64,000 bases of DNA, from NCBI RefSeq assembly GCF_051903065.1, contig NZ_CP178438.1; one strand, given 5' to 3'. A program made the position numbers and the translations under genes. This DNA comes from Escherichia coli (GTDB taxonomy: Bacteria > Pseudomonadota > Gammaproteobacteria > Enterobacterales > Enterobacteriaceae). The notes below the pieces were generated by a model, which was not told the DNA's origin, made no database searches, and was given only the letters and a program-made list of their open reading frames with translations. This document shows positions 834-45,766 of the stretch, piece after piece (within the stretch, counting starts at the first letter, position 1; each line of letters starts with the position of its first letter).

Positions 834-3800
834 ATGAAGAGTTATATCTATCAGGACGAAAAATCACATAAATTCTGGGCGGTGGAGCAGCAGGGAAACG
901 AGTTGCATATCAGCTGGGGAAAAGTTGGTACCCAAGGGCAAAGCCAGGTAAAAAATTTTGCTGATGTTGCAGCAGCGGAAAAAGCGAAACTGAAGCTTAT
1001 CGCGGAGAAAACGAAAAAAGGCTATGTGGAAAATGCTTCAGCAAACGTGCATATCCCCCCCATTACCAAAGCCACTCCTGAAGTTGAAACTTCCCCTGAG
1101 AGTAAAAACCAACGCCCCTGGCTGGCTGATGATGCGGTCATTCGGCTAACTGACGATATTAATCGATTTGCTTTTCCTCATCGCTCTCGCCCCAGAGAGA
1201 TCAATTATCTGCACAAAGATGGTCAAATATGGCAGCTCATCGCGAATAACACCAGAGCATATGATCCCGCCAACAATTACCGTTCTTATCCAGAAAACTG
1301 GCAGCAGGCTTTTGCTGAGTTACAAATGCGAGTTCAGGGTAATCAACAGACAGGGAGTGTGCAATCTGATGCAGCATTGCTCTGGAGTTTCTGGAACTCT
1401 TACTCTGCAGATGAACTGGTCGATGACTTAGTCATTCGCTGTGGTCTGGAAAGTGCCGTTGAAATTGCCCTTCTCGCTCTTCAACTTAGATATAAACCAG
1501 TAAAAGCCGACGTCACCACCATCATTCCCCCTGATCTCAAAGCAGAATCGCTACCGAACTGGCATCAACGTCTATGTCATCATCTTTCACTCGCTTCAGA
1601 AGATGAGTGGCAACGCTGTGTAGATAAGGTACTCGCGGCTATTCCCTCGCTATCCCCAGCACGGCAACCTTTTGCGGCGTTACTGATCCCTGAACGCCCG
1701 GATATCGCCAATGCTATGGCGCTACATTATGCAGATCAAAACGTTCCGGCGATGACCTGGTTAAGTATGATGGTAAGCGATGATGTTGCCCTGGCCATCC
1801 AGGAAAAATATGGTTTCCCACCGCTATATAATGATTTCCGCAAATATCTGGCTACGTTACTGGCAAATAATGGAATGCGTGGTGTAAGCCGGATTCTTCT
1901 CAAGCTACCTGTCGACTATCCCGTAAAATACACGGACCTTTTCACTCACATACACGCCAATGCTGAAAATCTTGTCAAATGGCTATGGAAAACGAATCAC
2001 CCGGATGCGATTCAAATTCTGATCCTCGGTGTAAATGGCAAGAAAAAGCACCTGGAATACTTAAGCAAAGCCTGCCAAAAACATCCCGCTGCGGCTATTG
2101 CCGCTTATGCTACTTTGCTGGCAATACATGAAAATAATGAGTGGCGTAAAGCGCTTGTCAAACTGATTACCGCCACGCCAGAGTTAGTATGCGAGGTCAT
2201 TCCCTGGGTTAATGCTAAGGCGGCAGGCATCTTATCTGAATGTCGTCCGCTGCCAATAGCTGAAGAATGTGAATATGCCACTGTGGATATGTTGCCGGAG
2301 CTGCTGGTCGCTCCACCGTGGGTAATAAATAAGAAAAAGAATGTCATACCCGTATTTGATTTACCGGTACTTCCCATTCCTGCCGTCACGGATATCACAC
2401 CAGGAATTACAGAGTTAATCAGTCATACTGACATATCCAGATTCAGTGAAATCGCGCAATATCAGGCATCACAGCAAACCTTATTTACCGACCTGCCACT
2501 AATTGAAAAAGAAAGCTGGGAGACATCTTTCATTCCTTTTACACCAGAACAACAAATTCTTTGGCAATTAGGTTTTAATGAATGGCTGCATTGCGAAAAT
2601 GACTTACATGAAAAAAAATATATACCGCAAAGCGCTGTTGATGCCTTGTTGCGCTTTGATTTTTCAGCACTAAAAGCTGAGTTTGCGAAATATCACAACA
2701 ATGCCAACAAAAGCTGGAATCTATCTGCGCTTTGTTACTTACCGGGACAACAGGCGATCTCATTTCTCAACCAAATAATCATTGAGGAGCGATATTCAGG
2801 TGAGAAAGAGATTCTGGCGGTTTTTGGTAGTACGGCCATTCCTGCGTTTATGACCTGCTTGCAACGAGATCATCAACGCCTGTGGATATTCACCCTTTTT
2901 ATTGGAGCCAGTGAACTAGCCTTACCAATGGCGCAGCGGTTACAGAAAAAAATAGCTTACAAGGATGCCGTTAATTGGCTGGCAAATAACCCGCGCCATG
3001 CCGCCGCCGGGCTACTGCCTTTGGCGCTGGGCAAACCGTGCCAAAATCGGGAATATGCCCGCCAGGCACTCCTCCTGCTAGTGAAATTAAACCAGCGAGA
3101 AACGATTGAGGAAATCGCCCAAGGATATAATCAACCTGATGTTTTAGCTGCGCTGGCAACATTATTTGATAGCGACCCACTGGAAGAATATCCTGCAAAA
3201 ATCGCCCCACTGCCCGGCTTTTATCAGTTCCCCTTATGGCGCAGACCTCGGCTTAAAAGTAACAACCTGCCTCTGCCAGATGACGCTATGCGCCACCTCG
3301 GCACAATGTTGAGCTTTCCACGCGACATTACCTCCTACGCTGGGCTGGCGATCATCAAAGAGACCTTCACCCGCGAATCACTGGCTGACTTTGGCTGGGA
3401 TCTCTACACGGCATGGACAGAAGCAGGCGCACCCGCAAAAGAGAACTGGGCATTTACCTCGCTGGGGATTCTAGGCAATGACGACACCGCGCGTAAACTA
3501 ACCCCGCTCATCCGCGCCTGGCCGGGTGAATCCCAGCATAAACGCGCGGTTTACGGGCTGGATGTGTTAGCCAGTATCGGTAGCGACATTGCGCTTATGT
3601 TGCTTAATGGCATTGCGCAAAAGATTAAATTCGTTGCATTACAGGAATATGCCAGCGACAGAATCAATATGGTCGCCGAAAATCGCGGACTGACAATGGC
3701 CGAACTGGAAGATCGCCTGGCACCGGATTTAGGGCTTGATAGCAGTGGCTCGCTAATATACTGGATTTCGGCCCCCGCAAATTCACCGTTGGTTTTGACG

Positions 3801-4636
3801 AAACCTTAAAACCTGTAGTGTGCGATGCAAACGGCAAAGTCCTGAAAGATTTACCTAAGACAAACCAGAGCGATGATAAAACACTGGCAACTGACGCAGT
3901 TAATCTCTTCAAACAGTTGAAAAAAGATGTTCGTGCTATCGCCAGCCAGCAAATTACCCGTCTGGAACAGGCTATGTGCCAGCGCAGACGCTGGACGGCA
4001 GAGCAGTTCCGCCTGTTTCTGGTGGAGCATCCGCTGGTACGTCACTTAACCCGACGGCTGTTATGGGGGGTTTATAACGATGAAAACGCCCTTATCATCT
4101 GTTTTCGCGTGGCAGAAGACAGCACTTACAGCGATGCGCAGGATGAGTTATTCACGCTGCCAGCAGGAAACATCGGTATACCGCATGTGCTGGAAATCCC
4201 CCCTGAATCCGCCGCTGCATTCAGGCAAATTTACGTTGATTACGAACTGCTTCCCCCTTTCCAACAGCTCGAACGTGGTAGTTACCACCTTGCTGATAAC
4301 GAACGTAATGTCCATGAATTGTCACGCTGGAACGGACGTCTCTGCCAGGCCGGACGCATTGTCGGGCTGGAACGCAGAGGCTGGCAACGTCTGGAAGAAA
4401 GCGGCAGCGTCTATGCGATGCGCAAATCTACCCCTTATGGTGCTCTCGAACTTGAAACAGAACCTTTTTCATTAATTTATGGCGAAACGGGGTATAGCGA
4501 CCTGCTGCCTGTCGAAAGCGTAAAAATCACCGCCCCTTATGATCGCTATGGTAAACAATCCTCACCCACTTTCTCCGTGCTCGACGACATCACCGCCAGC
4601 GAGCTGATTAACGACATTGAATCACTGTTTGATTAA
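834..4636 (+). pseudogene. molR: WGR-domain/DUF4132 protein (MolR-type), disrupted by a frameshift near 3750-3765
   Basis: ORFs 834..3809 (991 aa) and 3818..4636 (272 aa) together align colinearly with the intact 1249-aa paralog downstream; shifting frame at about 3757 restores the LDFG.RKFTV.FDETLKP motif seen in paralog 2; N-terminal WGR-like sequence MKSYIYQDEKSHKFWAVEQQ. Confidence 0.75.
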
Positions 4637-4648
4637 AAGGATTTAACA

Positions 4649-7600
4649 ATGAAAACCTATATTTATCAGGACGAAAAATCACATAAATTCTGGGCGGTGG
4701 AGCAGCAGAGAAACGAGCTGCATATCAACTGGGGCAAAGTCGGCACTAACGGGCAAAGTCAGGTAAAAAGCTTTGCTGATGCTGCGGCGGCAGAAAAAGC
4801 GGAACTGAAGCTGATTGCGGAGAAGGTGAAGAAGGGGTATGTGGAAGAATTATCTTCACCATCCCAACCCGCAATCAAAATAGAAACGATCGAAGTAGAT
4901 ACAGCTGACGTGGCAGAAACCAAAGTCGTATTTGACCAAAGTATGGTTGTTGAACCTGCTGAGACACCATGCCCGTGGCTGACAGATGATTCCACTATCC
5001 ATCTATCGGAGAAAAAGTCTCAGGGGGCCTTACCTTCCCGACGTTTTCCTGGGGATGCTGTAAGCGAACCACAAGACAGCCTCCTTATGAATTTAGGTCA
5101 GGATATTCATAATCTATCAGGAAAATTAACAACATACGATTTCAGTGCATGTTCTGCTAACTGGCAGCAGAATATCAATGAAGCTCTCGCTAATGGTCCA
5201 CTTTCTCCTGCTGCGTTGGCTGTACAGGTTGTTCTGGTTTCACGTAAATTCTGGGGCGAATGCCCTGAACTCATGGATGAAATTGTCTATGTCTACGGAC
5301 TAGAATTTGCCGTGGATATGTTTATTGCCATGCAATATATCTCGTTCGATTGCACTTATCACAGAACAAGCATACACATAACTTTTCAGCCATTATTAAT
5401 CCACGCACATTGTGTTACCCCCTTTGACGTTCGACTGCGTAAACATTTGGCTCTAGCAGAAGAAACTTTGTGGCAACGCTGTGTAGATAAATTCATTACA
5501 GCTTTGCCTGATATTCCTCCCGTTCAACAACCGATGGTAGCGCTAATGCTACCGGAACGCCCGGAGATTGCAGAAGAAGTCGCACGACGGTTACTGGAGC
5601 AGAAAAATGGCCACACTGTTGAATGGCTGAAACTTGTTGTACAAGAATCTTCCTTGCTCAAAGCACTGGAATCTTATTGCGCGTACGACCTTTTTAATGA
5701 CTATTACCATGGTTGCATCTGGAATGTCACCGTTTTGCAGGAGCAAGGGATTGCCGGAATCGCTCGCTTCGCCCCCTATGCTTATGCTGATCTTTGCGGA
5801 AGTATTCTCGCAGAGATCAATCACCCACAAGCATTAATGCTACTTATACGTGTGTCTGGCAAAACTAAACGCTGCCATGAACGAATGACTACGGCTTGCG
5901 CTGCGTTCCCACACGCAGCACTGGCAGCACTGGCGGAACTTCTAGTGCAAAAAGAAGAGAATAGTTGGCGCATTATGCTAATGACGATGCTTATCTCGCA
6001 ACCGACACTAGCAGAACAGGTCATTCCCTGGCTTTCGACACCCGCAGTTGCAGTGCTGAAATCATGCCAGCAACAACTGACACAGCCCTCAAACCATGCC
6101 TGCGTCGATCTACTGCCTGCCGTATTAGTCTCACCGCCCTGGCTTTCGAAAAAGAAAAAATCTGTAATGCCGGTATTGGATTTAACGCCATTACCGTTGG
6201 AGTCATGCTGTACATTGACCGAGACGGCAGAAAAAGAGATTCATGCAAGGCATCGCTGGCACGCACATCAAATAGACATCGGCCAAAAAGAGGATATTCA
6301 GAACTACCTGGCACGTCTGGGTTTCAATCGCTGGAATAATGGCCAGTATATGAAAGCGCCTGATGCTGCTATAGAGCTCTGGCAAAGGGGAGATTATTCC
6401 GCGCTGATCAGCGAATTTAAAACCTTCTGGCACTCCTATCAACGGGAATGGCAGCTTTACATGTTAGCCGCCCTGCCTATCGAAAAGACAGCGCAGGCGT
6501 GGAATGTCCTCAGTAAAGAGCCACACGTCGGTGTCGAGTTTGTCATGACGCACCTGCAACTCACTGGGTTACAGGGTTTTATTCACTCCTTTTCACGCTA
6601 CCCGCAAGAAGCTCTGCCTGTAGCACAATATTTTGCGGCTATCGAATTAGCGCCACTGATCGCCCGTGCCTTCAACAAACTCAAAACCCTACGACAAGAC
6701 GCCCGTAGCTGGCTGCTAAAATACCCGGAACACGCCATAACCGGCCTGCTGCCTTCGGCGCTCGGCAAAGCCGGTGAAGCACAGGATAACGCTCGCGCTG
6801 CCTTACGTATGCTTACCGAAAACGGTCATCAGCCATTACTGCAAGAAATCGCCCGGCGTTATAACCAGCCGGAAGTAACCGACGCGGTGAACGCTCTGCT
6901 TGCGCTCGATCCCTTAGATAATCACCCGACAAAAATCCCCACTCTTCCGGCCTTTTATCAGCCATCGCTCTGGACGCGCCCGGTATTAAATACAAACGCC
7001 CAATCACTGCCAGATAGCGCACTCCAGCACCTCGGTGAAATGCTCCGCTTCCCTCAGGAAGAGGCCCTGTATCCGGGATTATTGCAGGTGAAAGATGCCT
7101 GTACCGCCGACTCACTGGCTGAATTTGCCTGGGATCTGTTTACCGCCTGGTTGACTGCGGGCGCACCGTCGAAAGAGAGTTGGGCGTTCACTGCGTTAGG
7201 CGTTCTTGGTAACGATGACACCGCCCGCAAACTGACGCCATTAATACGCGCCTGGCCTGGTGAATCCCAGCATAAACGCGCCACCGTTGGGTTGGATATT
7301 CTCGCCGCTATCGGTAGTGATATCGCCCTGATGCAGCTTAACGGTATTGCCCAGAAACTGAAATTCAAAGCATTACAGGAGCGGGCAAAAGAAAAAATTG
7401 CCGACATTGCCGAAAGCCGCGAACTCACGGTGGCAGAGCTTGAAGATCGGTTAGCACCGGATCTCGGTCTGGATGATAACGGTTCGTTGCTGCTGGATTT
7501 CGGCTCACGCCAGTTCACCGTCAGCTTTGATGAAACCTTAAAACCGTTTGTGCGTGATGTTTCTGGCAGCCGTCTGAAAGACCTGCCCAAACCAAACAAA

Positions 7601-8398
7601 AGCGATGATGAATCACAGGCGAACGATGCTGTTAACCGCTACAAATTGCTGAAAAAAGATGCGCGTACCGTCGCCGCCCAGCAGGTAGCAAGGCTGGAAT
7701 CCGCCATGTGCCTGCGCCGCCGCTGGTCGCCGGAAAACTTCCAGCTCTTCCTGGTTGAGCATCCGTTGGTTCGCCACTTAACCCGCCGTCTGATTTGGGG
7801 TGTTTATAGCGCCGAAAACCAGCTACTGGCTTGCTTTCGCGTAGCGGAAGATAACAGCTACAGTACCGCTGACGATGATCTTTTCACCCTGCCGGAAGGC
7901 GATATCTCTATCGGCATTCCTCACGTTCTGGAAATATCACCAACGGATGCTGCCGCCTTTGGTCAGCTTTTTGCCGACTACGAACTGCTACCACCGTTCC
8001 GTCAGCTTGACCGTAACAGTTACGCCCTGACAGAAGCCGAGCGCAACGCCAGCGAACTGACCCGCTGGGCAGGCAGAAAATGCCCGAGCGGTCGGGTCAT
8101 GGGGCTGGCGAATAAAGGCTGGATAAAGGGCACCCCGCAGGATGGAGGCTGGATCGGCTGGATGATCAAACCTCTCGGTCGCTGGTCGTTAATCATGGAA
8201 ATCGATGAAGGTTTTGCGGTAGGCATGTCGCCAGCCGAACTGAGTGCCGAGCAGCTCTTAAGCAAGCTGTGGCTATGGGAAGGCAAAGCAGAAAGCTATG
8301 GCTGGGGGAGTAATTCAACACAGGAAGCGCAGCTCTCCGTACTCGATGCCATCACCGCCAGCGAGCTGATTAACGATATTGAAGCTCTGTTTGAATAA
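4649..8398 (+). CDS. WGR-domain/DUF4132 protein, intact paralog of molR (1249 aa)
   Basis: Tracked ORF; N-terminal about 65 aa nearly identical to copy 1; conserved C-terminal motif ASELINDIEALFE; start 12 bp after the end of copy 1. Confidence 0.8.
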   Translation: MKTYIYQDEKSHKFWAVEQQRNELHINWGKVGTNGQSQVKSFADAAAAEKAELKLIAEKVKKGYVEELSSPSQPAIKIETIEVDTADVAETKVVFDQSMVVEPAETPCPWLTDDSTIHLSEKKSQGALPSRRFPGDAVSEPQDSLLMNLGQDIHNLSGKLTTYDFSACSANWQQNINEALANGPLSPAALAVQVVLVSRKFWGECPELMDEIVYVYGLEFAVDMFIAMQYISFDCTYHRTSIHITFQPLLIHAHCVTPFDVRLRKHLALAEETLWQRCVDKFITALPDIPPVQQPMVALMLPERPEIAEEVARRLLEQKNGHTVEWLKLVVQESSLLKALESYCAYDLFNDYYHGCIWNVTVLQEQGIAGIARFAPYAYADLCGSILAEINHPQALMLLIRVSGKTKRCHERMTTACAAFPHAALAALAELLVQKEENSWRIMLMTMLISQPTLAEQVIPWLSTPAVAVLKSCQQQLTQPSNHACVDLLPAVLVSPPWLSKKKKSVMPVLDLTPLPLESCCTLTETAEKEIHARHRWHAHQIDIGQKEDIQNYLARLGFNRWNNGQYMKAPDAAIELWQRGDYSALISEFKTFWHSYQREWQLYMLAALPIEKTAQAWNVLSKEPHVGVEFVMTHLQLTGLQGFIHSFSRYPQEALPVAQYFAAIELAPLIARAFNKLKTLRQDARSWLLKYPEHAITGLLPSALGKAGEAQDNARAALRMLTENGHQPLLQEIARRYNQPEVTDAVNALLALDPLDNHPTKIPTLPAFYQPSLWTRPVLNTNAQSLPDSALQHLGEMLRFPQEEALYPGLLQVKDACTADSLAEFAWDLFTAWLTAGAPSKESWAFTALGVLGNDDTARKLTPLIRAWPGESQHKRATVGLDILAAIGSDIALMQLNGIAQKLKFKALQERAKEKIADIAESRELTVAELEDRLAPDLGLDDNGSLLLDFGSRQFTVSFDETLKPFVRDVSGSRLKDLPKPNKSDDESQANDAVNRYKLLKKDARTVAAQQVARLESAMCLRRRWSPENFQLFLVEHPLVRHLTRRLIWGVYSAENQLLACFRVAEDNSYSTADDDLFTLPEGDISIGIPHVLEISPTDAAAFGQLFADYELLPPFRQLDRNSYALTEAERNASELTRWAGRKCPSGRVMGLANKGWIKGTPQDGGWIGWMIKPLGRWSLIMEIDEGFAVGMSPAELSAEQLLSKLWLWEGKAESYGWGSNSTQEAQLSVLDAITASELINDIEALFE

Positions 8399-8407
8399 GG
8401 AAAGAGC

Positions 8408-11400
8408 ATGGACAAGGAATTACCGTGGCTGGCGGATAACGCCCAAGTGGAACTGAAATATAAAAAAGGCAAAACACCACTCAGCCATCGCAATTGGCCG
8501 GGCGAACCGGTGCCTGTTATCACTGAAAGCCTCATCCAGACACTGGGTGATGAATTGCTACAAAAAGCAGAGAAGAAAAAAAACATTGTCTGGCGTTATG
8601 AAAATTTTTCACTGGAGTGGCAGTCCGCCATTACGCAGGCCATCAACTTGATCGGCGAACACAAACCCTCAGTCCCGGCCCGCACAATGGCGGCGCTAGC
8701 CTGTATCGCGCAAAATGACAGCCAACAGTTGCTCGACGAAATCGTCCAACAAGAGGGGCTGGAATATGCGACTGAGGTGGTGATTGCACGCCAGTTTATT
8801 GCACGGTGTTATGAAAGTGATCCTCTGGTAGTCACATTGCAGTATCAGAACGAGGACTATGGCTATGGTTATCGCTCAGAAACCTATAACGAATTCGATC
8901 TCCGACTGCGTAAACACCTCTCTCTGGCAGAGGAAAGCTGCTGGCAGCGTTGCGCCGACAAACTCATTGCCGCACTGCCAGGAATAACCAAAGTTCGCCG
9001 TCCTTTTATTGCGCTGATCCTCCCGGAAAAGCCTGAAATAGCCAATGAACTCGCCAGTCTTGAAAGCTCCCGGTCAAGTCTCCATTCAAAGGAGTGGTTA
9101 AAGGTCGTTGCTACTGATAATACGGCGGTAAAAAAACTCGAACGATACTGGGGCCTGGACGTATTTAGCGATCGCGAAGCCAGCTACATGTCACAAAAAA
9201 ACCACTTCGGCTACGCGGCCTGCGCCGCCCTTTTGCGCGAACAAGGACTGGCAGCCATTCCGCGCCTCGCGATGTATGCCCATAAAGAAGATTGCGGCAG
9301 TCTGTTGGTACAAATTAACCATCCGCAGGTCATCCACACCTTGCTACTGGTGGCTGATAAAAACAAACCCAGCCTGCAACGTGTGGCTAAATACAGTAAA
9401 AACTTCCCCCACGCGACGCTCGCGGCACTGGCAGAACTGCTGGCGTTAAAAGAACCACCAGCCCGCCCTGGTTATCCAATCATCGAAGACAAAAAGCTGC
9501 CTGCCCAGCAAAAAGCACGCGATGAATACTGGCGTACGCTGTTACAAACGCTGATGGCATCGCAGCCACAACTGGTAGAAGAGGTGATGCAGTGGTTAAG
9601 TACTCAAGCCCGGGCAGTACTGAATAGTTATTTATTGGCACCGCCCAAACCGGTTATTGATGGCACCGATAACAGCAATCTGCCTGAAATCCTCGTTTCA
9701 CCACCGTGGCGTAGTAAGAAAAAAATGACAGCTCCACGTCTTGATTTGGCACCGCTCGAATTAACCCCGCAAGTTTACTGGCAACCAGGCGAACAAGAGA
9801 GGCTTGCCTCCACTGAGTCTGCCCGTTATTTCAGCACGGAATCTCTTGCGGAACGCATGGAACAAAAAAGTGGGCGAGTTGTATTACAGGAACTGGGTTT
9901 TGGGGATGATGTATGGCTGTTTCTGAATTATATACTCCCCGGAAAACTGGATGCTGCACGCAATTCACTCATTGTTCAGTGGCATTACTACCAGGGGCGG
10001 GTTGAAGAGATCCTGAATGGCTGGAACTCCCCGGAAGCACAATTAGCAGAACAGGCGCTCCGCAGCGGTCACATAGAAGCGTTAATTAACATATGGGAAA
10101 ATGACAACTACTCACGTTATCGTCCGGAAAAGAGTGTCTGGAACCTGTATTTATTGGCACAGTTGCCGCGTGAGATGGCTTTGACCTTCTGGCTGCGTAT
10201 CAATGAGAAAAAACATCTGTTCGCGGGTGAGGACTATTTTCTCAGTATCCTCGGATTGGATGCGCTACCAGGTCTGCTGTTGGCTTTTTTACATCGTCCA
10301 AAAGAAACATTTCCGTTAATTTTAAATTTTGGCGCAACAGAACTGGCCCTGCCCGTTGCCCGCGTCTGGCACCGTTTTGCGGGCCAGCGTAATCTGGCTC
10401 GCCAGTGGATTTTACAATGGCCGGAACATACGGCTACTGCACTTATCCCTCTTGTCTTTATCAAACCCAGCGATAATAGCGAAGCCGCATTACTTGCCCT
10501 GCGTTTACTGTACGAACAGGGACATGGCGAGTTGCTGCAAACCGTGGCAAACCGCTGGCAACGCGCTGATGTATGGCCTGCCCTGGAGCAGTTGCTTAAA
10601 CAGGGTCCAATGGACATTTACCCGGCACGCATTCCAAAAGCCCCTGATTTCTGGCATCCGCAAATGTGGTCCAGGCCGCGCCTTATCACTAATAATCAAC
10701 CTGTTACCGATGACGCTCTGGAAATTATCGGCGAAATGCTGCGCTTTACCCAGGGGGGACGTTTTTATAGCGGTCTGGAACAACTGAAAACGTTTTGCCA
10801 GCCACAAACGCTGGCCGCTTTTGCCTGGGATCTCTTCACTGCGTGGCAACAAGCTGGTGCCCCCGCAAAAGACAACTGGGCATTTCTGGCGTTAAGTCTC
10901 TTTGGTGACGAAAGCACGGCTCGGGATCTGACGACACAGATCCTCGCCTGGCCACAAGAAGGCAAATCTGCCCGTGCTGTCAGCGGCCTGAACATCCTTA
11001 CCCTGATGAATAATGATATGGCGCTGATGCAGCTGCATCATATATCGCAACGGGCTAAATCCCGCCCCTTACGTGATAACGCGGCGGAATTTCTTCAGGT
11101 GGTCGCAGAAAATCGCGGGCTAAGCCAGGAAGAGCTAGCGGACAGATTAGTCCCAATCCTGGGCCTTGATGATCCGCAGGCGTTGAGTTTTGATTTTGAT
11201 CCCCGGCAGTTTACCGTTCGCTTCGATGAAAACCTCAACCCGGTTATCTTTGATCAGCAAAACGTTCGCCAGAAAAGTGTTCCCCGGTTGCGTGCCGATG
11301 ACGATCAACTGAAAGCGCCCGAGGCACTGGCCCGACTAAAAGGGCTAAAAAAAGATGCTACTCAGGTGAGCAAAAACCTGCTCCCGCGTCTTGAAGCTGC

Positions 11401-12040
11401 CCTACGTACCACCCGACGCTGGTCGCTGGCAGATTTTCATTCTCTGTTTGTTAATCATCCCTTTACCCGCCTGGTTACCCAGCGATTAATATGGGGGGGT
11501 TATCCGGCAAATGAACCGCGTCGTTTACTCAACGCCTTTCGTGTGGCCGCAGAGGGGGAGTTCTGCAATGCGCAGGATGAGCCCATTGACCTTCCTGCGG
11601 ATGCTCTGATTGGCATTGCCCACCCGTTAGAAATGACAGCAGAAATGCGCAGTGAATTTGCACAGCTTTTTGCCGATTACGAAATTATGCCGCCTTTTCG
11701 CCAGTTGTCGCGCCGCACGGTGCTGCTCACACCTGACGAGTCAACCAGTAACAGCCTGACTCGCTGGGAAGGTAAATCCGCTACCGTTGGGCAACTTATG
11801 GGAATGCGATACAAAGGCTGGGAATCAGGCTATGAGGACGCATTTGTCTATGACCTGGGTGAGTACCGGCTGGTCCTTAAGTTTTCACCCGGTTTTAACC
11901 ACTACAATGTTGATAGCAAAGCGCTAATGAGCTTCCGTTCTCTTCGAGTGTACCGTGACAATAAATCCGTCACTTTTGCCGAACTTGATGTGTTTGATTT
12001 GAGAGAGGCGTTAAGCGCACCTGACGTCATTTTCCATTAA
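8408..12040 (+). CDS. yehI: DUF4132 protein, third paralog, lacking the N-terminal WGR module (1210 aa)
   Basis: Tracked ORF; begins at the PWLADNA motif that is about residue 95 of the other two paralogs; start 9 bp after the stop of paralog 2; shares the conserved central and C-terminal blocks (HPLVRHLTRRLIWG-like, DLFTAW..AGAP). Confidence 0.8.
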   Translation: MDKELPWLADNAQVELKYKKGKTPLSHRNWPGEPVPVITESLIQTLGDELLQKAEKKKNIVWRYENFSLEWQSAITQAINLIGEHKPSVPARTMAALACIAQNDSQQLLDEIVQQEGLEYATEVVIARQFIARCYESDPLVVTLQYQNEDYGYGYRSETYNEFDLRLRKHLSLAEESCWQRCADKLIAALPGITKVRRPFIALILPEKPEIANELASLESSRSSLHSKEWLKVVATDNTAVKKLERYWGLDVFSDREASYMSQKNHFGYAACAALLREQGLAAIPRLAMYAHKEDCGSLLVQINHPQVIHTLLLVADKNKPSLQRVAKYSKNFPHATLAALAELLALKEPPARPGYPIIEDKKLPAQQKARDEYWRTLLQTLMASQPQLVEEVMQWLSTQARAVLNSYLLAPPKPVIDGTDNSNLPEILVSPPWRSKKKMTAPRLDLAPLELTPQVYWQPGEQERLASTESARYFSTESLAERMEQKSGRVVLQELGFGDDVWLFLNYILPGKLDAARNSLIVQWHYYQGRVEEILNGWNSPEAQLAEQALRSGHIEALINIWENDNYSRYRPEKSVWNLYLLAQLPREMALTFWLRINEKKHLFAGEDYFLSILGLDALPGLLLAFLHRPKETFPLILNFGATELALPVARVWHRFAGQRNLARQWILQWPEHTATALIPLVFIKPSDNSEAALLALRLLYEQGHGELLQTVANRWQRADVWPALEQLLKQGPMDIYPARIPKAPDFWHPQMWSRPRLITNNQPVTDDALEIIGEMLRFTQGGRFYSGLEQLKTFCQPQTLAAFAWDLFTAWQQAGAPAKDNWAFLALSLFGDESTARDLTTQILAWPQEGKSARAVSGLNILTLMNNDMALMQLHHISQRAKSRPLRDNAAEFLQVVAENRGLSQEELADRLVPILGLDDPQALSFDFDPRQFTVRFDENLNPVIFDQQNVRQKSVPRLRADDDQLKAPEALARLKGLKKDATQVSKNLLPRLEAALRTTRRWSLADFHSLFVNHPFTRLVTQRLIWGGYPANEPRRLLNAFRVAAEGEFCNAQDEPIDLPADALIGIAHPLEMTAEMRSEFAQLFADYEIMPPFRQLSRRTVLLTPDESTSNSLTRWEGKSATVGQLMGMRYKGWESGYEDAFVYDLGEYRLVLKFSPGFNHYNVDSKALMSFRSLRVYRDNKSVTFAELDVFDLREALSAPDVIFH

Positions 12041-35488: not shown

Positions 35489-35606
35489 AGCAGTTGCCAC
35501 AGATAAGCATTCACACCACATCCGGCACCGGGTGTTCCATGCCTGATGCGACGCTGGCGTGTCTTATCTGGCCTAACCCATTGAAATAACCACGCACCTC
35601 ACTGCG

Positions 35607-36368
35607 CTATTCTGGGTTGAACTGCGGATTCGCCAACATAAAGCCGCCATCCACTATCAACGACTGCCCGGTGGTGTAATTTGCACCCTCCGAACAAAGC
35701 CACGCCACCAGGCTGGCAATCTCATGCGTTGCGCCAAAACGCCGCAGAGGAATCGAAGGCTCCGCGTCGGGCTTCACGTCGCTATCATCCATGCCGTTCA
35801 TTGGCGTAGCGATCGCCCCAGGTGCGACTGCGTTCACCAAAATCTTATGCCTGACCAACTCCAGCGCCATTGCTTTGGTTAACCCGCCGAGCGCATGTTT
35901 AGCGGCTGTGTAGGCGCTGGCATCCGGCAGCGGCGTATGTTCATGTACCGACGTAATGTTGATGATGCGACCACCCTGCCCTTGTTTCACCATCTGGCGG
36001 GCCGCAATTTGCGAGCATAAAAATGCACCATCGACATCAACGGTAAAAATCTTGCGCCACTCATCGAAAGCCATATCAAGAAACGGCGCTTTGGTCATTG
36101 CGCCCGCATTATTCACCAGCACATCAATACGCCCCAGCCGTTGAATGAGTTTCTCCAGCGCCTGCGCACCTTCTGGCAGATTGCCGAGATCCAGTTGCAC
36201 GATCTCCGCACGTACGCCGTGGCTAACCACCTCACGCGCGGTATCTTTTGCCCCTTCTTCATCAGAGTGCCAGGTAATGCCAATATCAAACCCCTGCTGC
36301 GCCAGTAATAATGCGCACTCTTTGCCGATCCCCGAATCGGAGGCGGTAATTATCGCGACCTGTGCCAT
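35607..36368 (-). CDS. yohF: Short-chain dehydrogenase/reductase (253 aa)
   Basis: Nucleotide-binding motif TASDSGIGK near the N-terminus. Confidence 0.8.
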   Translation of the reverse strand: MAQVAIITASDSGIGKECALLLAQQGFDIGITWHSDEEGAKDTAREVVSHGVRAEIVQLDLGNLPEGAQALEKLIQRLGRIDVLVNNAGAMTKAPFLDMAFDEWRKIFTVDVDGAFLCSQIAARQMVKQGQGGRIINITSVHEHTPLPDASAYTAAKHALGGLTKAMALELVRHKILVNAVAPGAIATPMNGMDDSDVKPDAEPSIPLRRFGATHEIASLVAWLCSEGANYTTGQSLIVDGGFMLANPQFNPE

Positions 36369-36420
36369 CGAGTTCTCCACTTAACGCTGAATAAACGTTA
36401 AGTATAGAAGGCGCATATCA

Positions 36421-37857
36421 TCAGCGTTTGTAACCCCCGCCCAACGCACCAGTGAGTTGAATGGAGGCATCCAGCCACTGCCCTTGCAATAACAGGCCAT
36501 TGGCCCGCTCACGCAGCGCGGGGATTCTGGCTTCGCTGACGCGGGAACCAGCAATGATGCCCGCGTTAAAGCGCGCCTGCGCAAGACCTACCACACGCAA
36601 GGCATCGCGCTCAATTTGCGCCTGATGCTGGTTTTTCTCCGCCAGTGTCTGAACCTGACTGGCTGCCCGCGCCACGTCATTCACCGCTTCAACCACCGCT
36701 TTGTTGTAGCTGGCGATAGACAAGTTGCTTTCGGCTTTTGCGATATCGAGATTGGCGTTAAGACGACCACTATCGAAAATGGGTAGCGTCAGGCCTGCCG
36801 TAACGCCCATTTGCTGCGCGGAATGACGGAACAGATCGCTTAAGTGCAACGCATCCTGTTGCAGGAAGGCCATCAGGTTGATGTCAGGATAAAATGCCGC
36901 TTTTGCCGCATCAATGGTGCTTAGCGATGACTCAACGTACCAGTGCGCCGCCTGCAAATCTGCCCGCCGGGCCAGTAAGGAGTACCCCAGTTCATCAGGA
37001 AGCTGGCTTGCCACTTTCGGCAACGCGACCGGTTTAAGCTTCAATGACTTTGTCTGGTGATTTGTAAGTGCGCTTAACCGTGCCTCAATAATTTTCATTT
37101 TCCCCGCGACATCGTTGAGCTGCTGCCGGGTTTTGCTGGCATTAATATCGGTTTCCACACCTTCAACTGAAGAAGTAATCCCGTTCTGATATAGCTGGCG
37201 ATCGGTCGCGATAATGGTGTTCTGCTCTTTTTCTATTTGCTGCAAGACCGTGTTTAACGCCGCCTGGGTTTGCCACTCCCAGTACAGGCGGGCTACGCTG
37301 CCAGCCAGCAATTGGCGGGTTTGCTCGCGTTCCGCCGCCCGTGCTTTAACCGTACCCAGGCGGGCAGTAACCTCCGCCCGATTCTTTCCCCAGATATCGA
37401 GATGCCAGCCCGCCGTTAAGCCAAAAGTTCCGTTGGTGTACCACGGACCGGTCGTACCTGCGGCCGGATCGTTCAGAGCAAACGGCCCCATTAAGCCTTC
37501 TGCCGACATTTTTTGCCGCTCCATATCCGCAGAAAAGTCGATCTGCGGACCATCCTGAGTAGCAACTGCCTTCGCCTGGGCTTCAGCTAGCTGAATGCGC
37601 TGTTCAGCCACCTGCATATCCGGTGCGTTCTGTAGTGCATTGTTAATTAATGAAGTGAGTTGATTATCGTGATACTCCAGCCACCATTGGCTGTCTGGCC
37701 AACCATTTTTCAGCGCCGTGGGTAATGCGGTGTCAACTTGTGCAGCGGGCGTTTGCTGGCTTAACGCCTGGCGGGTTTCATGCATAGGCGCACACCCGGC
37801 CAGCATCAGTAACAGCGGAAAACAGGCGATGGCTGGATAAAAGGAATCACGATTCAT
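36421..37857 (-). CDS. mdtQ: Outer-membrane efflux lipoprotein, NodT/OprM-like, apparently intact here
   Basis: Lipobox LLMLAGC after start MNRDSFYP; continuous 478-codon frame. Confidence 0.75.
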   Translation of the reverse strand: MNRDSFYPAIACFPLLLMLAGCAPMHETRQALSQQTPAAQVDTALPTALKNGWPDSQWWLEYHDNQLTSLINNALQNAPDMQVAEQRIQLAEAQAKAVATQDGPQIDFSADMERQKMSAEGLMGPFALNDPAAGTTGPWYTNGTFGLTAGWHLDIWGKNRAEVTARLGTVKARAAEREQTRQLLAGSVARLYWEWQTQAALNTVLQQIEKEQNTIIATDRQLYQNGITSSVEGVETDINASKTRQQLNDVAGKMKIIEARLSALTNHQTKSLKLKPVALPKVASQLPDELGYSLLARRADLQAAHWYVESSLSTIDAAKAAFYPDINLMAFLQQDALHLSDLFRHSAQQMGVTAGLTLPIFDSGRLNANLDIAKAESNLSIASYNKAVVEAVNDVARAASQVQTLAEKNQHQAQIERDALRVVGLAQARFNAGIIAGSRVSEARIPALRERANGLLLQGQWLDASIQLTGALGGGYKR

Positions 37858-38080
37858 GGGGGAATAATCAGGTAAGAAAAGGTGCGCGGAGATTACCGTG
37901 TGTTGCGATATATTTTTTAGTTTCGCGTGGCAATACATCAGTAGCAATAAAACGACATATCCAGAAAAATATACACTAAGTGAATGATATTCTCCGATTT
38001 ATCTTAATCGTTTATGGATAACGGCAAAGGGCTTCGTTTTTTCCTATACTTATTCAGCACTCACAAATAAAGGAACGCCA

Positions 38081-38164
38081 ATGAAAATTATACTCTGGGC
38101 TGTATTGATTATTTTCCTGATTGGGCTACTGGTGGTGACTGGCGTATTTAAGATGATATTTTAA
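38081..38164 (+). CDS. yohP: Small membrane protein (27 aa, MKIILWAVLIIFLIGLLVVTGVFKMIF)
   Basis: Hand translation; below the ORF-track cut-off; GGA-containing ribosome-binding region upstream. Confidence 0.6.
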   Translation: MKIILWAVLIIFLIGLLVVTGVFKMIF

Positions 38165-38229: not shown

Positions 38230-38510
38230 CAGCTCCGGTGTTGGTGGCGTCAAAATCGCTGAAGCGTTCCCCGAAGGCCGGGGCAGCCCACATGGATGTG
38301 GGCTGAGGGCGCGTCTTACAAGGACGTTACCTCGCGCCCGACCCGGTAGCCGAAGGGGATAAGCTGAAGGTACCGCGCAGCGGCGATTTTGTTCGCCAGA
38401 GCCCGGGGGTGCAGGGGGAGGAGGCGATTGTCCTCCCCCTGCGCGCTCCTTGCGCCAGTGGCAATATGTGGCTTAGCTCATGAAAGGAGCGCAACAAGAT
38501 GATGAAGCTG
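38230..38510. other. GC-rich, hairpin-rich intergenic element of unknown identity
   Basis: Perfect inverted repeats CAGCCCACAT/ATGTGGGCTG (about 38296-38317) and CAGGGGGAGGA/TCCTCCCCCTG (about 38411-38440); no convincing ORF. Confidence 0.4.
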
Positions 38511-38551
38511 AATAAGCGATTCATTGTCTCTGATAAACTGCGATTCCACTA

Positions 38552-39502: not shown

Positions 39503-39661
39503 ATCATCACCCGCAAAAAAATGAGGCGCTATGTTAGCGCCTCCTGTGTTTGCAGACAAACTGACTTACTGATTAATTCGGGCAAGATTTTTACCCTCAC
39601 CCTAACCCTCTCCCGAAGGGGCGAGGGGACCGCCCGTGCGCCTGATTGGGTGAAGAAGTGC

Positions 39662-40855
39662 TCAGCGTGGTTGCAAACAGTTATCTTCTTTCCAGCCGTA
39701 CAACCACTCCATGCCGCGATAAAATTCTGCCTGCGATTTCCCTTTCCACAGCAGATTACGTACCTGGCGTTCTACCCCTGCGGCGTGGTAAACCCGCCCC
39801 ATTTCACGGGTCGACCAGACGATGCGCGCGGTGCGCGGAATTCGTACCGACTCATACAGCGCAAAGGCCTGCGCCGCATCACCCTCACACTGCGCCAGCG
39901 CCTTACCCAGCGTTACTGCATCTTCCAGCGCCATACAGGCTCCCTGCGCCATATATTGCGCCACCGGATGGGCCGAATCGCCCACAAGCGTTATGCGCTT
40001 CGTTCCCCACTTCGCCACCGGTTCACGGTCAGCGGTTGACCAGCGTCGCCATGAAGTCGGTTTATCCAACATCTGGCGCGGACGGGGGTGAATCCCTTCA
40101 AAGTAAGAGAGCACTTCCTCTTTACTACCATCCTTCACGCCCCACTCTTCCTGCTGGCGGCTGTGGAATGTTACCACCAGGTTATACTGCTTGCCGCCGC
40201 GCAAAGGGTAATGCACCAAGTGACAATGCGGCCCCGCCCACAGTACCGGTGCGTTAATGCGCAAATCTTCCGGCATATCGGCACGATCGATAACCGCACG
40301 GTAGACAACATGTCCGGTGACACGCGGCGCATCGCCCAATAAGCTCTGGCGCACCACTGACTTCACGCCGTCACAGCCAATCAGAATATCGCCGGTCCAG
40401 CTATTGCCGCGATCGTCAAACACGGTGACATCGTCTTCCGTCTCGCGAATATCCACGACGTTGGTGGAGGTGTGATATTCCACGTCCGGATGCGTCAGTA
40501 CCGCTTCCCACACCGAGGCGTGAATATCAACCCGGTGGATCACCGCGTAAGGGCCGCCGAAATGGTCACGAAAGGCCTGCCCGGTTTCAATGCACACCAC
40601 TTCTTCGGCGTTCACCGCATCCATCATGGTAATGTGATCGGTAAACACCGCGCGCTGGCGGGCAACTTCGCCGACGCCGAGGCTGTCCAGCGCCGAAAAC
40701 GCATTTGGCCCCAACTGGATGCCCGCGCCAATCTCACCGATCTCATGCGCCTTTTCCAGCAGCACCACTTTGATCCCCAGGCGGGCCAGTGACAGCGCAG
40801 TTGCCGCACCGCCGATCCCGCCTCCCACAATTACTGCGCGTGTCACTTTCGTCAT
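39662..40855 (-). CDS. mhbM: FAD-dependent aromatic monooxygenase, probable 3-hydroxybenzoate 6-hydroxylase
   Basis: FAD-binding GxGxxG motif VIVGGGIGGAATALSL; last gene of a gentisate-pathway cluster. Confidence 0.7.
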   Translation of the reverse strand: MTKVTRAVIVGGGIGGAATALSLARLGIKVVLLEKAHEIGEIGAGIQLGPNAFSALDSLGVGEVARQRAVFTDHITMMDAVNAEEVVCIETGQAFRDHFGGPYAVIHRVDIHASVWEAVLTHPDVEYHTSTNVVDIRETEDDVTVFDDRGNSWTGDILIGCDGVKSVVRQSLLGDAPRVTGHVVYRAVIDRADMPEDLRINAPVLWAGPHCHLVHYPLRGGKQYNLVVTFHSRQQEEWGVKDGSKEEVLSYFEGIHPRPRQMLDKPTSWRRWSTADREPVAKWGTKRITLVGDSAHPVAQYMAQGACMALEDAVTLGKALAQCEGDAAQAFALYESVRIPRTARIVWSTREMGRVYHAAGVERQVRNLLWKGKSQAEFYRGMEWLYGWKEDNCLQPR

Positions 40856-40869
40856 TATAGTTCTCCTGG

Positions 40870-41517
40870 TCAGGCTGAAATTTTATCTTGTTGATTTTCT
40901 GGCGCTGCGGCAATGAACGCTGGCAGCTGTGTGCAGGCGTCGTACACCGCTTTGCAGCGTGGATACCCGCTCAAATCGCAGTTCATGCGTAGCGCGTTCG
41001 CCCACTGCGGGACAAGGCAGCAATCTGCCAGCGTCGGCGTCTCGCCCACACAAAATTGCCCCGACTGGTTCTGGCGCAACAGTTGTTCCACCGCGCTTAA
41101 CCCTTGCTGGATCCAGTGCGCATACCAACGTTTTTTTTCTTCTTCACTGACGTTCAGTTCTTCGGTCAGGTAGCGCAGCACGCGCAAGTTATTCAATGGA
41201 TGAATATCACAAGCAATGGCATAGACAATTTCCAGCACCTTGTTGCGGGCCGGCTCTTCCTGCGGCACCAGCGGAACTTGCGGGTAGTGCCTCTCCAGCC
41301 AGTCAATAATCGCCAGCGATTGTCCGAGTGATTCGCCCTCGTCAGTCAGCAGCGTCGGCACCAGCCCGACCGGATTCATCCGCCGATAGGCCAGTTCATT
41401 TTGCTGACCAATACGGATATTCACCCCTTCGGTCTGGTAATTAATGCCTTTCAGCGCCAGCGCAATGCGTACCCGGTACGACGCTGAACTATTAAAAAAA
41501 CTGTACAGCTTCATCAT
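40870..41517 (-). CDS. mhbI: Maleylpyruvate isomerase (zeta-class glutathione S-transferase fold)
   Basis: GST-like N-terminus MKLYSFFNSSASYRVRIALALKG; cluster context. Confidence 0.65.
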   Translation of the reverse strand: MMKLYSFFNSSASYRVRIALALKGINYQTEGVNIRIGQQNELAYRRMNPVGLVPTLLTDEGESLGQSLAIIDWLERHYPQVPLVPQEEPARNKVLEIVYAIACDIHPLNNLRVLRYLTEELNVSEEEKKRWYAHWIQQGLSAVEQLLRQNQSGQFCVGETPTLADCCLVPQWANALRMNCDLSGYPRCKAVYDACTQLPAFIAAAPENQQDKISA

Positions 41518-41522
41518 GCACC

Positions 41523-42224
41523 TCAGACAATCTTCACCGCGATAGGCGTTAAGCCCTCGACGTTGCCTGTGATCACATCACCTTTCACTACCGGGCCAAC
41601 CCCTTCCGGCGTACCGGTGAAGATCAGATCGCCCGGTTGCAGCTCAAAGAAGCCTGACAGATAGCTGATGGTTTCATTCACCGACCAGATGAGATGGCGA
41701 ATATCGCTGCGCTGATGATCTTCGCCGTTAACCTGTAACCAGATTGGCGCATTATCAATACCGCCAATATCGCGGGCTTTGTGCAGCGGCGCGATGGGCG
41801 CTGAGAGATCAAACGCTTTACCGATTTCCCACGGGCGGCCCATCTGGCGCATTTCCATTTGACGGTCACGCCGAGTCATATCAAGACCCGTGGCATAACC
41901 CCAGACATATTCATGGGCGTGTTCCAGCGGGATATCGCTGCCTTTTTTACCAATCGCCACCACCAGTTCAATTTCGTAATGGTAGTTATCGGTCTGTGCC
42001 GGATACGGCAGCGCCAGCGTTTCACCAGCGGCAACCGGAACAACGGCATCCGCCGGTTTGCAGAAGAAGAATGGCGGTTCACGATCCGGATCAAAGCCCA
42101 TTTCGCGGGCGTGAGCGGCATAGTTACGTCCGACGCAGTAAACGCGGCGCACGGGGAATTGTTCATCACTGCCAACAACCGGTACGGTAACGGGCGCTTG
42201 CGGTTCGAATACGTATTGAGTCAT
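41523..42224 (-). CDS. mhbH: Fumarylpyruvate hydrolase (fumarylacetoacetate hydrolase family)
   Basis: FAH-family sequence; cluster context. Confidence 0.65.
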
Positions 42225-42238
42225 TTTTCTCTCCTAAA

Positions 42239-43267
42239 TTAATAACGCGCTTCGCGGAACAGCCCCAGGGCTTCTTGTACCGGTCTGTCCGAAAAACTAA
42301 ATAAAACGGAATCTTGCGTGGTCTGGAACGACACGCCATGCCAGGTCGGCACCACGAAGATATCTTTTGCACTAAAGCTGAAGGTTTCATTGCCGATGAT
42401 GACCTGCCCGCTACCTTCCACCACATGGTAGATGGTGCTGTCAGTGGTACGCGCAACGCGTGAGGCAAACCCTTTCGGCAGCAGTTGCAGGAAAGCGCCC
42501 ATCGACGGCATCGGATAGCCGCCGGTGACCGGGTTGACGTAGCGCATTTTGTAGCCATCCCACTCGTCGGCATCGCCCAGTCGGGTTAAATCGTGCAGCA
42601 CTTCGCGGCTGCGGTCATAACGATAGTTAAAGATCGGCGAGGAGTTCCCCGTCTGATGCCGCAGCGGCAACATATTGGCAGCGTAACGCGGCAGATAATC
42701 TCCCTCTTTACGCGTTACCGGTTGTTGCTCTTCCGGATAATCTTCGGCAAAACCGCAGCCCAGAATATTCACTAATGGCAGATCCAGCCCATCGAGCCAG
42801 ATAACCGGTTCGTCGCCAGGGTTACCGTGATCGTGCCAGCGCCACTGCGGGGTCAGGATAAAATCGCCTTCATTCATTGGCGTGCGTTCGCCATCAACGG
42901 CGGTAAATGCCCCTTTGCCTTCAACAATAAAACGCAGCGCCGACTGATTATGACGATGACTCGGTGCCACTTCGCCCGGCATGATCAGTTGCAAACCGGC
43001 ATATAAAGTCGCGGTAATGGAAGACTGCCCGCGCAGCGCCGGGTTTTCCAGCACCAGCACGCGGCGCACGGCCTCTTTCGCACCAATCAGGCCGCCGCTC
43101 TCCAGTAGCAGCGGGCGGATCTCCTGATAATTCCAGTACGCTGGCGCACAGTTAGCGTTGGGCGTTTTCGGCACCAGATGGTGCAGTGACTCCCACAGCG
43201 GGGTCAGGTTTTGCCCGGAAATATGCTGATAAAATTGCTCGCGGCTATTTTGATTGTTATCAGTCAT
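42239..43267 (-). CDS. mhbD: Gentisate 1,2-dioxygenase (bicupin)
   Basis: Cupin metal-binding region [14 protein letters not shown]; size 342 aa. Confidence 0.75.
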
Positions 43268-43278
43268 TGGGATGCTCC

Positions 43279-44637
43279 TTATTCGTTCACAACGCCTGCG
43301 CGAGGCAGTGAGTCAGGGACAGAGGTCGACTGGCGAACCACGGTAATCAGCAGGGTTAACATCACCGCACTGATCGCCGCAGGCACAGCGATAATGAAAA
43401 ACAGGGTGTCGAAAGAGAAATTCATCGCCATCATCACGCCGCCAGACAGCGAACCAACAATCGCGCCGCAGCGGCCGATAGCATTTGACCAGCTCACGCC
43501 CGTGGCGCGACTTTGTGTTGGATAAAGTGTTGCGGTCAGCGCATTCAGCCCCACCTGCGATCCGCTAATGCCAATGCCAGTGCCGAAAATCGCCAGCGCC
43601 ATCAACCATAATCCATCCTGGCTTAAGCCAATCATCACGATGCATATAGCGCCTATGGCATAGCTCAGCGCCAGCACGCGGAAAGGATTGAACTTATCCA
43701 TCAGCACACCCAGCGCCAGCGCGCCTAACGTACCACCAATCTGGAACGCGGCGGTGACCCAGGACGCGTGTTGCAGGTCGATGCCGCGATGGTTCAGTAG
43801 CGTCGGCATCCAGCTTGAGAGCAGGTAAATAATCAGCAGGCTCATAAAGAACACTACCCACAGCATCAACGTGATGGGTAACTGACGTCCCATAAACAGT
43901 TGACGAATGCTGCCTTTTGTAACGGAGGCTGATTCAATGAGATAAAAGTGGGTATCGACATAACGCTCGCGGGTGATGGCGCTGACGGTTTTCGCAATCA
44001 CCGCCTGCGGTAGCTGGCGGCGCACCTGCCAGCGTGGCGATTCCGGCAGAACTACCAGCAGTGCGACAAACAGCATCAGCGGTAACACGCCCCCCAACAC
44101 CAGAATGCCGTGCCAGCCAATCACCGGCACCAGCTGCGCACTGACAATCCCGCCAAACGCCGAACCCAGCGTAAAGCCGCAAAACATCAGCGTCACCAGC
44201 GCGCCGCGGCGGCGGGCAGGCAGATACTCCGAGGTCATGGTGATGGTGTTCGGCATCGCGCCGCCCAGACCCAGGCCGGTGAGAAAGCGCAGGAAGACCA
44301 GCGTTTGCAGATCCGGTGAGAAAGCCGAGGCGAGGCTTAACGCGCCAAACAAAAAGACGCACAGCTCAATCACCCGCTTGCGACCAAAGCGATCGGACAA
44401 CGGGCCACAAAGCAGTGCGCCTGCGGTTAATCCTAGCAGACCCGCGCCAAAAAGCGGGGCGAGATCGCCTGCGGTGAGTTGCCAGTGAGTGCGAATATCA
44501 GGGGCGATAAATCCGATAGCCGCGGTGTCAAAACCATCGAGCATTACCACCAGAAAACAGCAGATGATAACGCGCCACTGCATCTTGCCGACCGGAGCAG
44601 CATCGATAAGTGCTTGTAAATCACGTCGTTGAGTCAT
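43279..44637 (-). CDS. mhbT: MFS transporter, probable 3-hydroxybenzoate/aromatic acid importer
   Basis: Twelve-helix MFS-like hydrophobic profile; cluster context. Confidence 0.65.
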
Positions 44638-44763
44638 AGTAAATGCCTCAGTGCAGGTAAGGTAGATGTTTCTTTTGTTTTGTATATGTTGCGATATTGT
44701 GATTAAAGAGATGAGATGTACAATGGCATTTCGGGCAGAGAGATAACCTGGAGGTTATGGCAA

Positions 44764-45672
44764 ATGGCGAACTGGGCGCAAAAATTAAAACTACATCACC
44801 TTGAAATGCTGGTGGCGCTGGGTGAACAGGGCAATCTAACCCATGTCGCACGAATGATGAATATCACCCAACCTGCGCTTTCGAAATGGTTGTCACAACT
44901 CGAAGATGAGATTGGAATCACACTTTTTGAGCGGCACAGCAAAGGATTACGTCCGACTGAAGGCGGCAAATTGTTATTGCAACATGCCCAACGGTTAATC
45001 AATGACATGGAGCGATCGCAACATGAACTGGCCCGTTTTAAACAAGGTGGACTGGTCGGCAGTCTGAAAATTGGCTGTTCTCCCGTCGCCACTGACTGCG
45101 TATCCCAGGCGATTTTGCATTTGCTTACGAAGATGCCAACTCTACACCTGAATATCGAAGAGAAGGTGATGACCCCATTGCTGCAAGATCTATTGGCAGG
45201 TTCTGTCGATGTGGTCGTTGGGCGAATTGGCGGTCGCGCATTGCAGCTGCCACTGAATTATCAGGTGCTGTACACCGAGCCAGTATGCTTTGTCGCCCGC
45301 CCTGAGCACCCACTGGCGAAATACGCCACCCTCAGCTGGAATGATCTTGCCAACTGGCGCTGGATCGTCTGGCCGACGGGTACCCCCATTCGCATTAGTA
45401 TTGATAATGCGCTGGTAGACCACGGCGTAATGCTGCCAGAAAACACGATTGAGTCGGCGTCGATGAACGTCAGTACCAACCTGTTACAAAGCAGCGATAT
45501 GATCTCTATTTTGTCATTACGCCTGGCGCAACGTTATGCCAGCCAGGGACAACTGGTGATACTCAACCTGCCAAAGATAGAACAGAAAGGTAGCGTCGGT
45601 GTGTTCTGGCGCAATAACGAAACGCCTTCTTATGCTTTAAGTCAGTTTCTGCACTTTTTACAGCAGAATTAG
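44764..45672 (+). CDS. mhbR: LysR-family transcriptional regulator, divergent from the catabolic operon
   Basis: N-terminal HTH LEMLVALGEQGNLTHVARMMNITQPALSKWL; GGAGG Shine-Dalgarno 9 nt before the ATG. Confidence 0.7.
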   Translation: MANWAQKLKLHHLEMLVALGEQGNLTHVARMMNITQPALSKWLSQLEDEIGITLFERHSKGLRPTEGGKLLLQHAQRLINDMERSQHELARFKQGGLVGSLKIGCSPVATDCVSQAILHLLTKMPTLHLNIEEKVMTPLLQDLLAGSVDVVVGRIGGRALQLPLNYQVLYTEPVCFVARPEHPLAKYATLSWNDLANWRWIVWPTGTPIRISIDNALVDHGVMLPENTIESASMNVSTNLLQSSDMISILSLRLAQRYASQGQLVILNLPKIEQKGSVGVFWRNNETPSYALSQFLHFLQQN

Positions 45673-45766
45673 TGTGCTGAACGGGGCGCTCGCCCGAGGT
45701 TACCTCCCTAAAATTCAACTATGCTGAGAATTCTTAATGTGATCGGTAGCACGTTTTACGAATTAA

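Follow-up and report, generated by a model that had tools for sequence, protein, structure and literature searches.

Does an uninterrupted mdtQ gene set an E. coli strain apart from others, and what would the encoded protein do in the cell? E. coli has three TolC homologues, among them MdtQ (formerly YohG), whose gene is counted in the E. coli core genome despite being annotated as a pseudogene (2025 TolC review, PMC11762307). Both questions are raised by the mdtQ locus in the stretch of E. coli DNA analysed here (64 kb in full; referred to as the window), for which an initial annotation, made from the letters alone, had described an intact mdtQ and had suggested that the strain keeps a functional efflux channel that the reference strain K-12 lacks.

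The mdtQ frame runs on the minus strand from an ATG at 37857 to a stop codon at 36421-36423 and comprises 478 codons plus the stop. As given from this ATG, the frame opens with MNRDSFYPAIACFPLLLMLAGCAPMHE, and the N terminus of the protein reads MNRDSFYPAIACFPLLLMLAGC. A mechanical ORF list places the start at a TTG further upstream (37947; 508 amino acids, aa). We rejected this extension as not biological, because the ATG-AAT-CGT start is shared by the Salmonella and Citrobacter orthologues, in which in-frame stops lie just upstream, and because residues 1-478 of MdtQ align with positions 1-478 of the NCBIfam MdtQ equivalog profile NF008524. The score against that profile (1025.6 bits vs a cut-off of 650) supports a firm, profile-based assignment of the predicted protein to the MdtQ equivalog family. 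Furthermore, the 1701-nt mdtQ locus is 100% identical to the annotated mdtQ of strain Res13-Sevr-PER07-33, and the position of the gene between dusC/yohP and yohF/yohD follows the same order in K-12, an annotated pig isolate, Salmonella and Citrobacter. The coordinates, the length of 478 codons and the lipobox LLMLAGC given by the initial annotation all proved exact. The features of the locus are collected in Table 1. Taken together, the window very probably carries the wild-type, intact allele of mdtQ, which belongs to the chromosomal core genes of Escherichia, Salmonella and Citrobacter and whose product is an outer-membrane factor lipoprotein of the NodT type.

Table 1. Features of the mdtQ locus (positions refer to the window).
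Feature	Positions	Strand	Basis or remark
mdtQ (yohG) CDS, intact	36421..37857	minus	ORF and translation; NF008524; two Pfam OEP stretches; identical annotated locus
Lipoprotein signal peptide, residues 1-21, with lipobox L-A-G-C	37792..37857	minus	translation
A5 run (T5 on the plus strand), codons K50-N51; A4 in K-12	37706..37710	minus	alignment with NC_000913 b2139
Conserved motif TGTATTGCCACGCGAAACTAAAAAA, 25 nt	37913..37937	minus	55-80 nt before the mdtQ ATG
yohF (SDR oxidoreductase)	35607..36368	minus	ORF list; annotation of identical locus
yohP (small membrane-protein gene), divergent from mdtQ	38081..38164	plus	annotation of identical locus; sequence

Global alignment with mdtQ of K-12 MG1655 (NC_000913.3, b2139, 2227323-2228758), which bears a pseudogene flag and measures 1436 nt vs 1437 nt in the window, revealed a single indel: one A has been lost from a run of five (A5 → A4, gene positions 148-152). 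K-12 mdtQ is frameshifted because it carries A4 instead of A5 at codons 50 and 51. Besides this indel, the two genes differ by seven substitutions, one of which is non-synonymous (H267N; His in the window, Asn in K-12). On the 3' side of the lesion the K-12 gene is open in the shifted frame, which accounts for its former annotation as two genes. In another O16:H48 genome, mdtQ is annotated as 'frameshifted'. The disruption of the K-12 gene mentioned in the initial annotation is thus borne out by the pseudogene flag and by the 1-nt deletion at the A5 run, and the K-12 alignment that it had proposed as a check found the window allele intact and the K-12 allele frameshifted rather than both intact.

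We then asked which of the two states is usual in the species. Of 5426 complete E. coli genomes, 5421 contain the mdtQ locus (1701 nt); in 5407, the match covers 80% or more of the locus. For the allele test, an exact 61-nt probe centred on the A5 run was compared with its K-12 version, one base shorter (60-mer): the 61-mer of the window matched exactly in 4587 complete genomes and the A4 60-mer in 355, with about 465 genomes that carry substitutions in the probe region falling outside both exact-match classes. Among the A4 matches listed, 60 out of 60 were laboratory strains or their derivatives, nearly all of them named K-12 and including MG1655, C600, DH5alpha, DH1, J53, NCM3722 and AG100. 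An evenly spaced sample of full-length matches gave a similar picture, with 37 of 39 having the length found in the window and two being one base shorter, and mdtQ is likewise intact in O157:H7, ST131, Nissle 1917 and a canine isolate. An intact mdtQ is therefore the norm in E. coli; what departs from it is the K-12 laboratory lineage. Accordingly, the factual elements of the initial suggestion hold, the gene being intact here and broken in K-12, but its framing is the wrong way round: the strain is not special, since it shares the species norm.

Pairwise comparison of five phylogenetically spread intact alleles, that of the window included, yielded dN/dS ratios of 0.03-0.11 at dS values of up to 0.10, which indicates that the MdtQ protein is under purifying selection. 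It is from this selection, and from the published expression of orthologues described below, that we infer the window protein to be functional. Losses occur sporadically: a different 1-nt deletion interrupts mdtQ in strain AHS8C65RI, an IS5-family element replaces the gene in CFSAN061769, and independent truncations have been reported in Salmonella Typhi and Paratyphi A (PMC9241588). These independent losses suggest that mdtQ is dispensable in some niches.

An intact frame may nonetheless be silent, and the alternative that fares best is that mdtQ is intact yet cryptic, being transcribed or translated too poorly to contribute, with its intactness merely tolerated. Features of the upstream region could be taken in this sense: no Shine-Dalgarno sequence precedes the mdtQ ATG within 15 nt, no sigma-70 match rose above the shuffled background at the mdtQ locus, the conserved upstream motif included, and neither the function nor the promoter of mdtQ has been established experimentally (PMC11762307). 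Moreover, loss of the gene in K-12 and in some natural isolates carries no reported cost. No Rfam element scored above threshold in the mdtQ leader. Against a cryptic gene stand the low dN/dS ratios, which mark the protein sequence as selected, and the motif TGTATTGCCACGCGAAACTAAAAAA, which is kept across genera: in a comparison of four orthologous loci it is retained in E. coli, Salmonella, Citrobacter and an orthologue of 59% identity, whereas its flanks diverge. Judged from this conservation, the motif may be a promoter or an operator, and it could equally serve the divergent yohP. Published data on orthologues point the same way as the selection, as the YohG orthologue has been detected in the outer-membrane proteome of Klebsiella pneumoniae ST258, and Salmonella yohG transcripts are stress-responsive, rising in a ciprofloxacin-selected mutant and under hypochlorite. 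On balance, we consider it unlikely that the gene is cryptic.

The predicted protein has the features of its family throughout. The NodT subfamily model TIGR01845 (TC 1.B.17) matched MdtQ with 274.1 bits vs a cut-off of 210.05, and Pfam PF02321 (OEP) matched two stretches with 106.6 bits. More specific models were not reached: MdtQ scored 356 bits against the MdtP family model NF007390 (cut-off 597), stayed below the cut-off of the CusC-type model, and obtained 53.8 bits with the TolC type I secretion model TIGR01844 (cut-off 225). Within the lipobox, Cys22 is invariant in an alignment of 46 homologues with identities down to 26%. By established lipoprotein rules, the mature protein would begin with a lipidated Cys22, followed at position +2 by Ala23, which is no inner-membrane retention residue and would permit sorting by the Lol system.

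An AlphaFold2 model built on the 46-sequence alignment (mean pLDDT 83.8, pTM 0.78) places beta-strands at residues 105-116, 139-153, 325-336 and 348-357, together with helices of 60-70 residues. The best Foldseek matches of this model were OprN, VceC, CusC, OprJ, SilC, OprM and TolC, with E values of about 1e-22 for the lipoprotein channels (OprN, VceC, CusC and OprM). Among the named NodT-type channels, the target-normalised TM-score (TMt) ranged from 0.73 to 0.88; TolC (1ek9), a more distant match, had a TMt of 0.74. The protomer is thus predicted to adopt a TolC/OprM-like fold and, as judged from profiles and model together, MdtQ is a standard outer-membrane factor lipoprotein. TIGR01845, NF008524, the OEP stretches and the structure model all agree with the full-length NodT/OprM-like outer-membrane factor of the initial annotation.

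A channel of this kind would need an inner-membrane partner, and we looked for one in the surroundings of the gene. The neighbours of mdtQ are yohF, yohD, yohC, yohP and dusC; a paper on YohP places yohP between dusC and what it calls 'the mdtQ pseudogene' (PMC12719787). Downstream, yohF lies on the same strand after a gap of 52 nt (36369-36420), in which a promoter and terminator scan of the locus detected no terminator-like site, and an SDR gene is also located 3' of mdtQ in Salmonella and in a metagenomic locus (L016), though not in Citrobacter. The two genes may be co-transcribed as an operon. By tblastn, no homologue of MdtN, MdtO, YtcA, AaeA, AaeB or AaeX was detected in the 64-kb window. 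The window is collinear with the annotated pig isolate at 96-99% identity, apart from one divergent block, and the annotation of that isolate, used solely as a collinear guide backed by the tblastn search, lists importers only in this stretch (YehWXYZ/OsmF, MglBAC and MhbT), without an efflux adaptor or pump. Hence the initial remark that no cognate pump gene is adjacent holds for the full window. The orphan arrangement is old: Salmonella, Citrobacter and the metagenomic orthologue (59% identity) share it, with no flanking pump gene in Salmonella or Citrobacter.

Several other features of the window were observed. Between dusC and yohJ, the window holds a 6.2-kb 3-hydroxybenzoate/gentisate catabolic cluster (39543-45727) comprising 3-hydroxybenzoate 6-monooxygenase, maiA, a fumarylacetoacetate-hydrolase-family gene, gtdA, mhbT and a LysR regulator, where K-12 has only 123 bp; because Salmonella and Citrobacter have the same cluster at the same position, it was lost from K-12 rather than gained by the window strain. 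In the yohP-dusC interval (38241-38512), a TRIP1c-type repeat is inverted relative to K-12, with 89% identity. TRIP1 copies are known in both orientations, with recombination between copies (PMC10888264). The yohD-yohF interval contains a sub-threshold match to Rfam naRNA4 (35500-35573; 35.5 bits vs a gathering threshold of 59.5, the match being clipped at the edge of the searched segment), which is probably a REP-type repeat. A run of very large ORFs (834-12040; 991, 272, 1249 and 1210 aa) has DUF4132 genes, yehI and its paralogues, as counterparts in the collinear genome, and positions 4846-7005 were not aligned to that genome by megablast, indicating a block that is strongly divergent between strains.

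We scanned 1.84 billion cluster representatives in full with MdtQ, using HMMER. After the orthologue at 59-60% identity there is a large gap, the next full-length relatives having 35-42% identity. The loci of ten relatives were looked up: five adjoin FUSC-family pumps, three of these within complete YtcA-adaptor-FUSC-channel operons; two lie in MFS-channel-adaptor operons; one is the orphan orthologue at 59-60% identity, followed by an SDR gene; and in two the flanks were too short to be read. In the eight loci with readable flanks, neither an RND nor an ABC pump was next to the MdtQ relative. The FUSC-linked neighbours were rejected as direct evidence for the MdtQ partner, since the relatives concerned are MdtP orthologues: in BLAST comparisons they share 40-54% identity with E. 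coli MdtP vs 35-40% with MdtQ, and the adaptors beside them are MdtN-like (54-69% identity). For the two MFS-linked relatives, BLAST scores are slightly higher with MdtQ than with MdtP, which weighs against the partner proposed below. A tree of 471 columns, built by neighbour joining with 300 bootstraps, grouped the MdtQ clade with 100% support, the MdtP clade with 92% and both together with 97%, leaving the MFS-linked proteins outside; this tree is small and its taxa are the best matches to MdtQ, so that its sampling is biased. Every member of the MdtP clade with readable flanks adjoins a FUSC gene, with or without MdtN-like and YtcA genes. On these comparisons, the most fitting description of MdtQ is that of an orphan lineage, sister to the MdtP-type channels.

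From this kinship with channels of ytcA-mdtN-mdtO-mdtP operons we propose, with low confidence, that the likeliest partner is a FUSC (PET) or MFS pump with an adaptor of the MdtN/AaeA/EmrA type, rather than an RND or ABC pump. One candidate in E. coli is AaeAB, whose outer-membrane partner is given as '?' in a 2021 review (PMC8277102). We rejected AaeAB as an obligate partner, because it works in MG1655 (PMC11481567), where mdtQ is frameshifted. More generally, no pump that has been characterised in K-12 depends obligately on MdtQ; this lineage is without the MdtQ protein yet has no known defect.

By analogy with characterised channels, the MdtQ precursor would be exported by Sec, lipidated at Cys22 and then carried by the Lol system to the outer membrane. 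There it would trimerise, the four beta-strands of each protomer forming a 12-strand barrel and the long helices a periplasmic tunnel, whose tip would dock on the membrane-fusion adaptor that serves an inner-membrane pump, the pump being encoded at another place in the genome. Because K-12 manages without it, MdtQ is probably a conditional or redundant substitute for TolC or MdtP. A bolder version, which we put forward as a long shot, is that natural Enterobacteriaceae use MdtQ as a TolC-independent exit duct with a FUSC/PET-type pump, either MdtNO, where it would take the place of MdtP, or AaeAB. If this is true, a TolC-independent FUSC/PET efflux route has been missed because nearly all of the genetics has been done in K-12, in which the channel is frameshifted.

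MdtQ might instead have no part in drug efflux, serving as the duct of another envelope system (type I secretion or metabolite export) or in a pump-independent role, for instance as a receptor or an envelope-stress protein. Such a role would fit the absence of a partner gene near mdtQ in any genus examined, the slightness of the reported antibiotic phenotypes and the possible co-transcription with the oxidoreductase gene yohF. However, every close relative with readable context lies beside an adaptor and a FUSC or MFS efflux pump, both the sequence and the predicted fold match those of efflux outer-membrane factors, and the score against the TolC type I secretion model is far under its cut-off. 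We therefore regard a role outside efflux as very unlikely, and an outer-membrane factor of an efflux system is the reading that we retain.

Two further alternatives concern the alleles themselves. That the window allele carries a subtle disabling missense change despite its open frame is highly improbable: its exact 478-aa sequence is found on 957 contigs under the name 'MULTISPECIES: MdtQ [Escherichia]', it differs from the O157 and ST131 alleles by just two residues, and the family-invariant residues C22, W58, W59, G226, R298, P324, P359, G473 and G474 are all present. That K-12 mdtQ might be equally intact, as could be read from one DH5alpha assembly (NZ_CM135829.1) that aligns over 1701 nt rather than the 1700 expected of K-12, possibly through a homopolymer sequencing error, is already refuted by the flagged and shorter NC_000913 gene, the 'frameshifted' O16:H48 assembly and the 355 genomes with the exact A4 version.

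The finding of an intact mdtQ is thus correct, ordinary and already documented in databases and in the 2025 review: the gene and its name had been recorded before, as had its status as a K-12 pseudogene and its conservation across E. coli. What the finding underlines is that K-12 is an imperfect reference: E. coli has four TolC-family channels, and the study of one of them in K-12 requires that a single base be repaired first. This bears on the phenotypes attributed to the gene. The 2025 review describes a heightened sensitivity of mdtQ null mutants to puromycin, acriflavine and tetraphenylarsonium (PMC11762307), and an increased drug susceptibility of mdtQ/yohG null mutants is also cited in PMC9241588. 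A phenotype of a yohG deletion would be puzzling in a K-12 background, where mdtQ is frameshifted at codon 50; if the null mutants were K-12, the phenotype needs another cause, for instance a polar effect on yohF or noise in the measurements.

Among known systems, the window protein is itself MdtQ/YohG of E. coli and other Enterobacteriaceae (NF008524; UniProt Q8X659 in O157:H7), with the same synteny, dusC-yohP-mdtQ-yohF. The top solved structure by sequence is VceC of Vibrio cholerae (PDB 1yc9; 139.6 bits), the channel of the VceAB MFS pump, which is also second-best by fold (TMt 0.84), although its identity to MdtQ is just 25%. The VceC match was rejected as a pointer to an MFS partner, since MdtP matches VceC about equally (149 bits). 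MdtQ is predicted to have the general fold of a trimeric channel in common with TolC of E. coli (TMt 0.74, with a Foldseek probability of 1.00), but the identity between the two is 13%, TolC is not a lipoprotein whereas MdtQ has a lipobox, and TolC works promiscuously with most E. coli pumps whereas for MdtQ no partner is known (PMC11762307). The closest paralogue is MdtP (YjcP/SdsP), likewise a NodT lipoprotein, with 35% identity. [quoted passage not shown]
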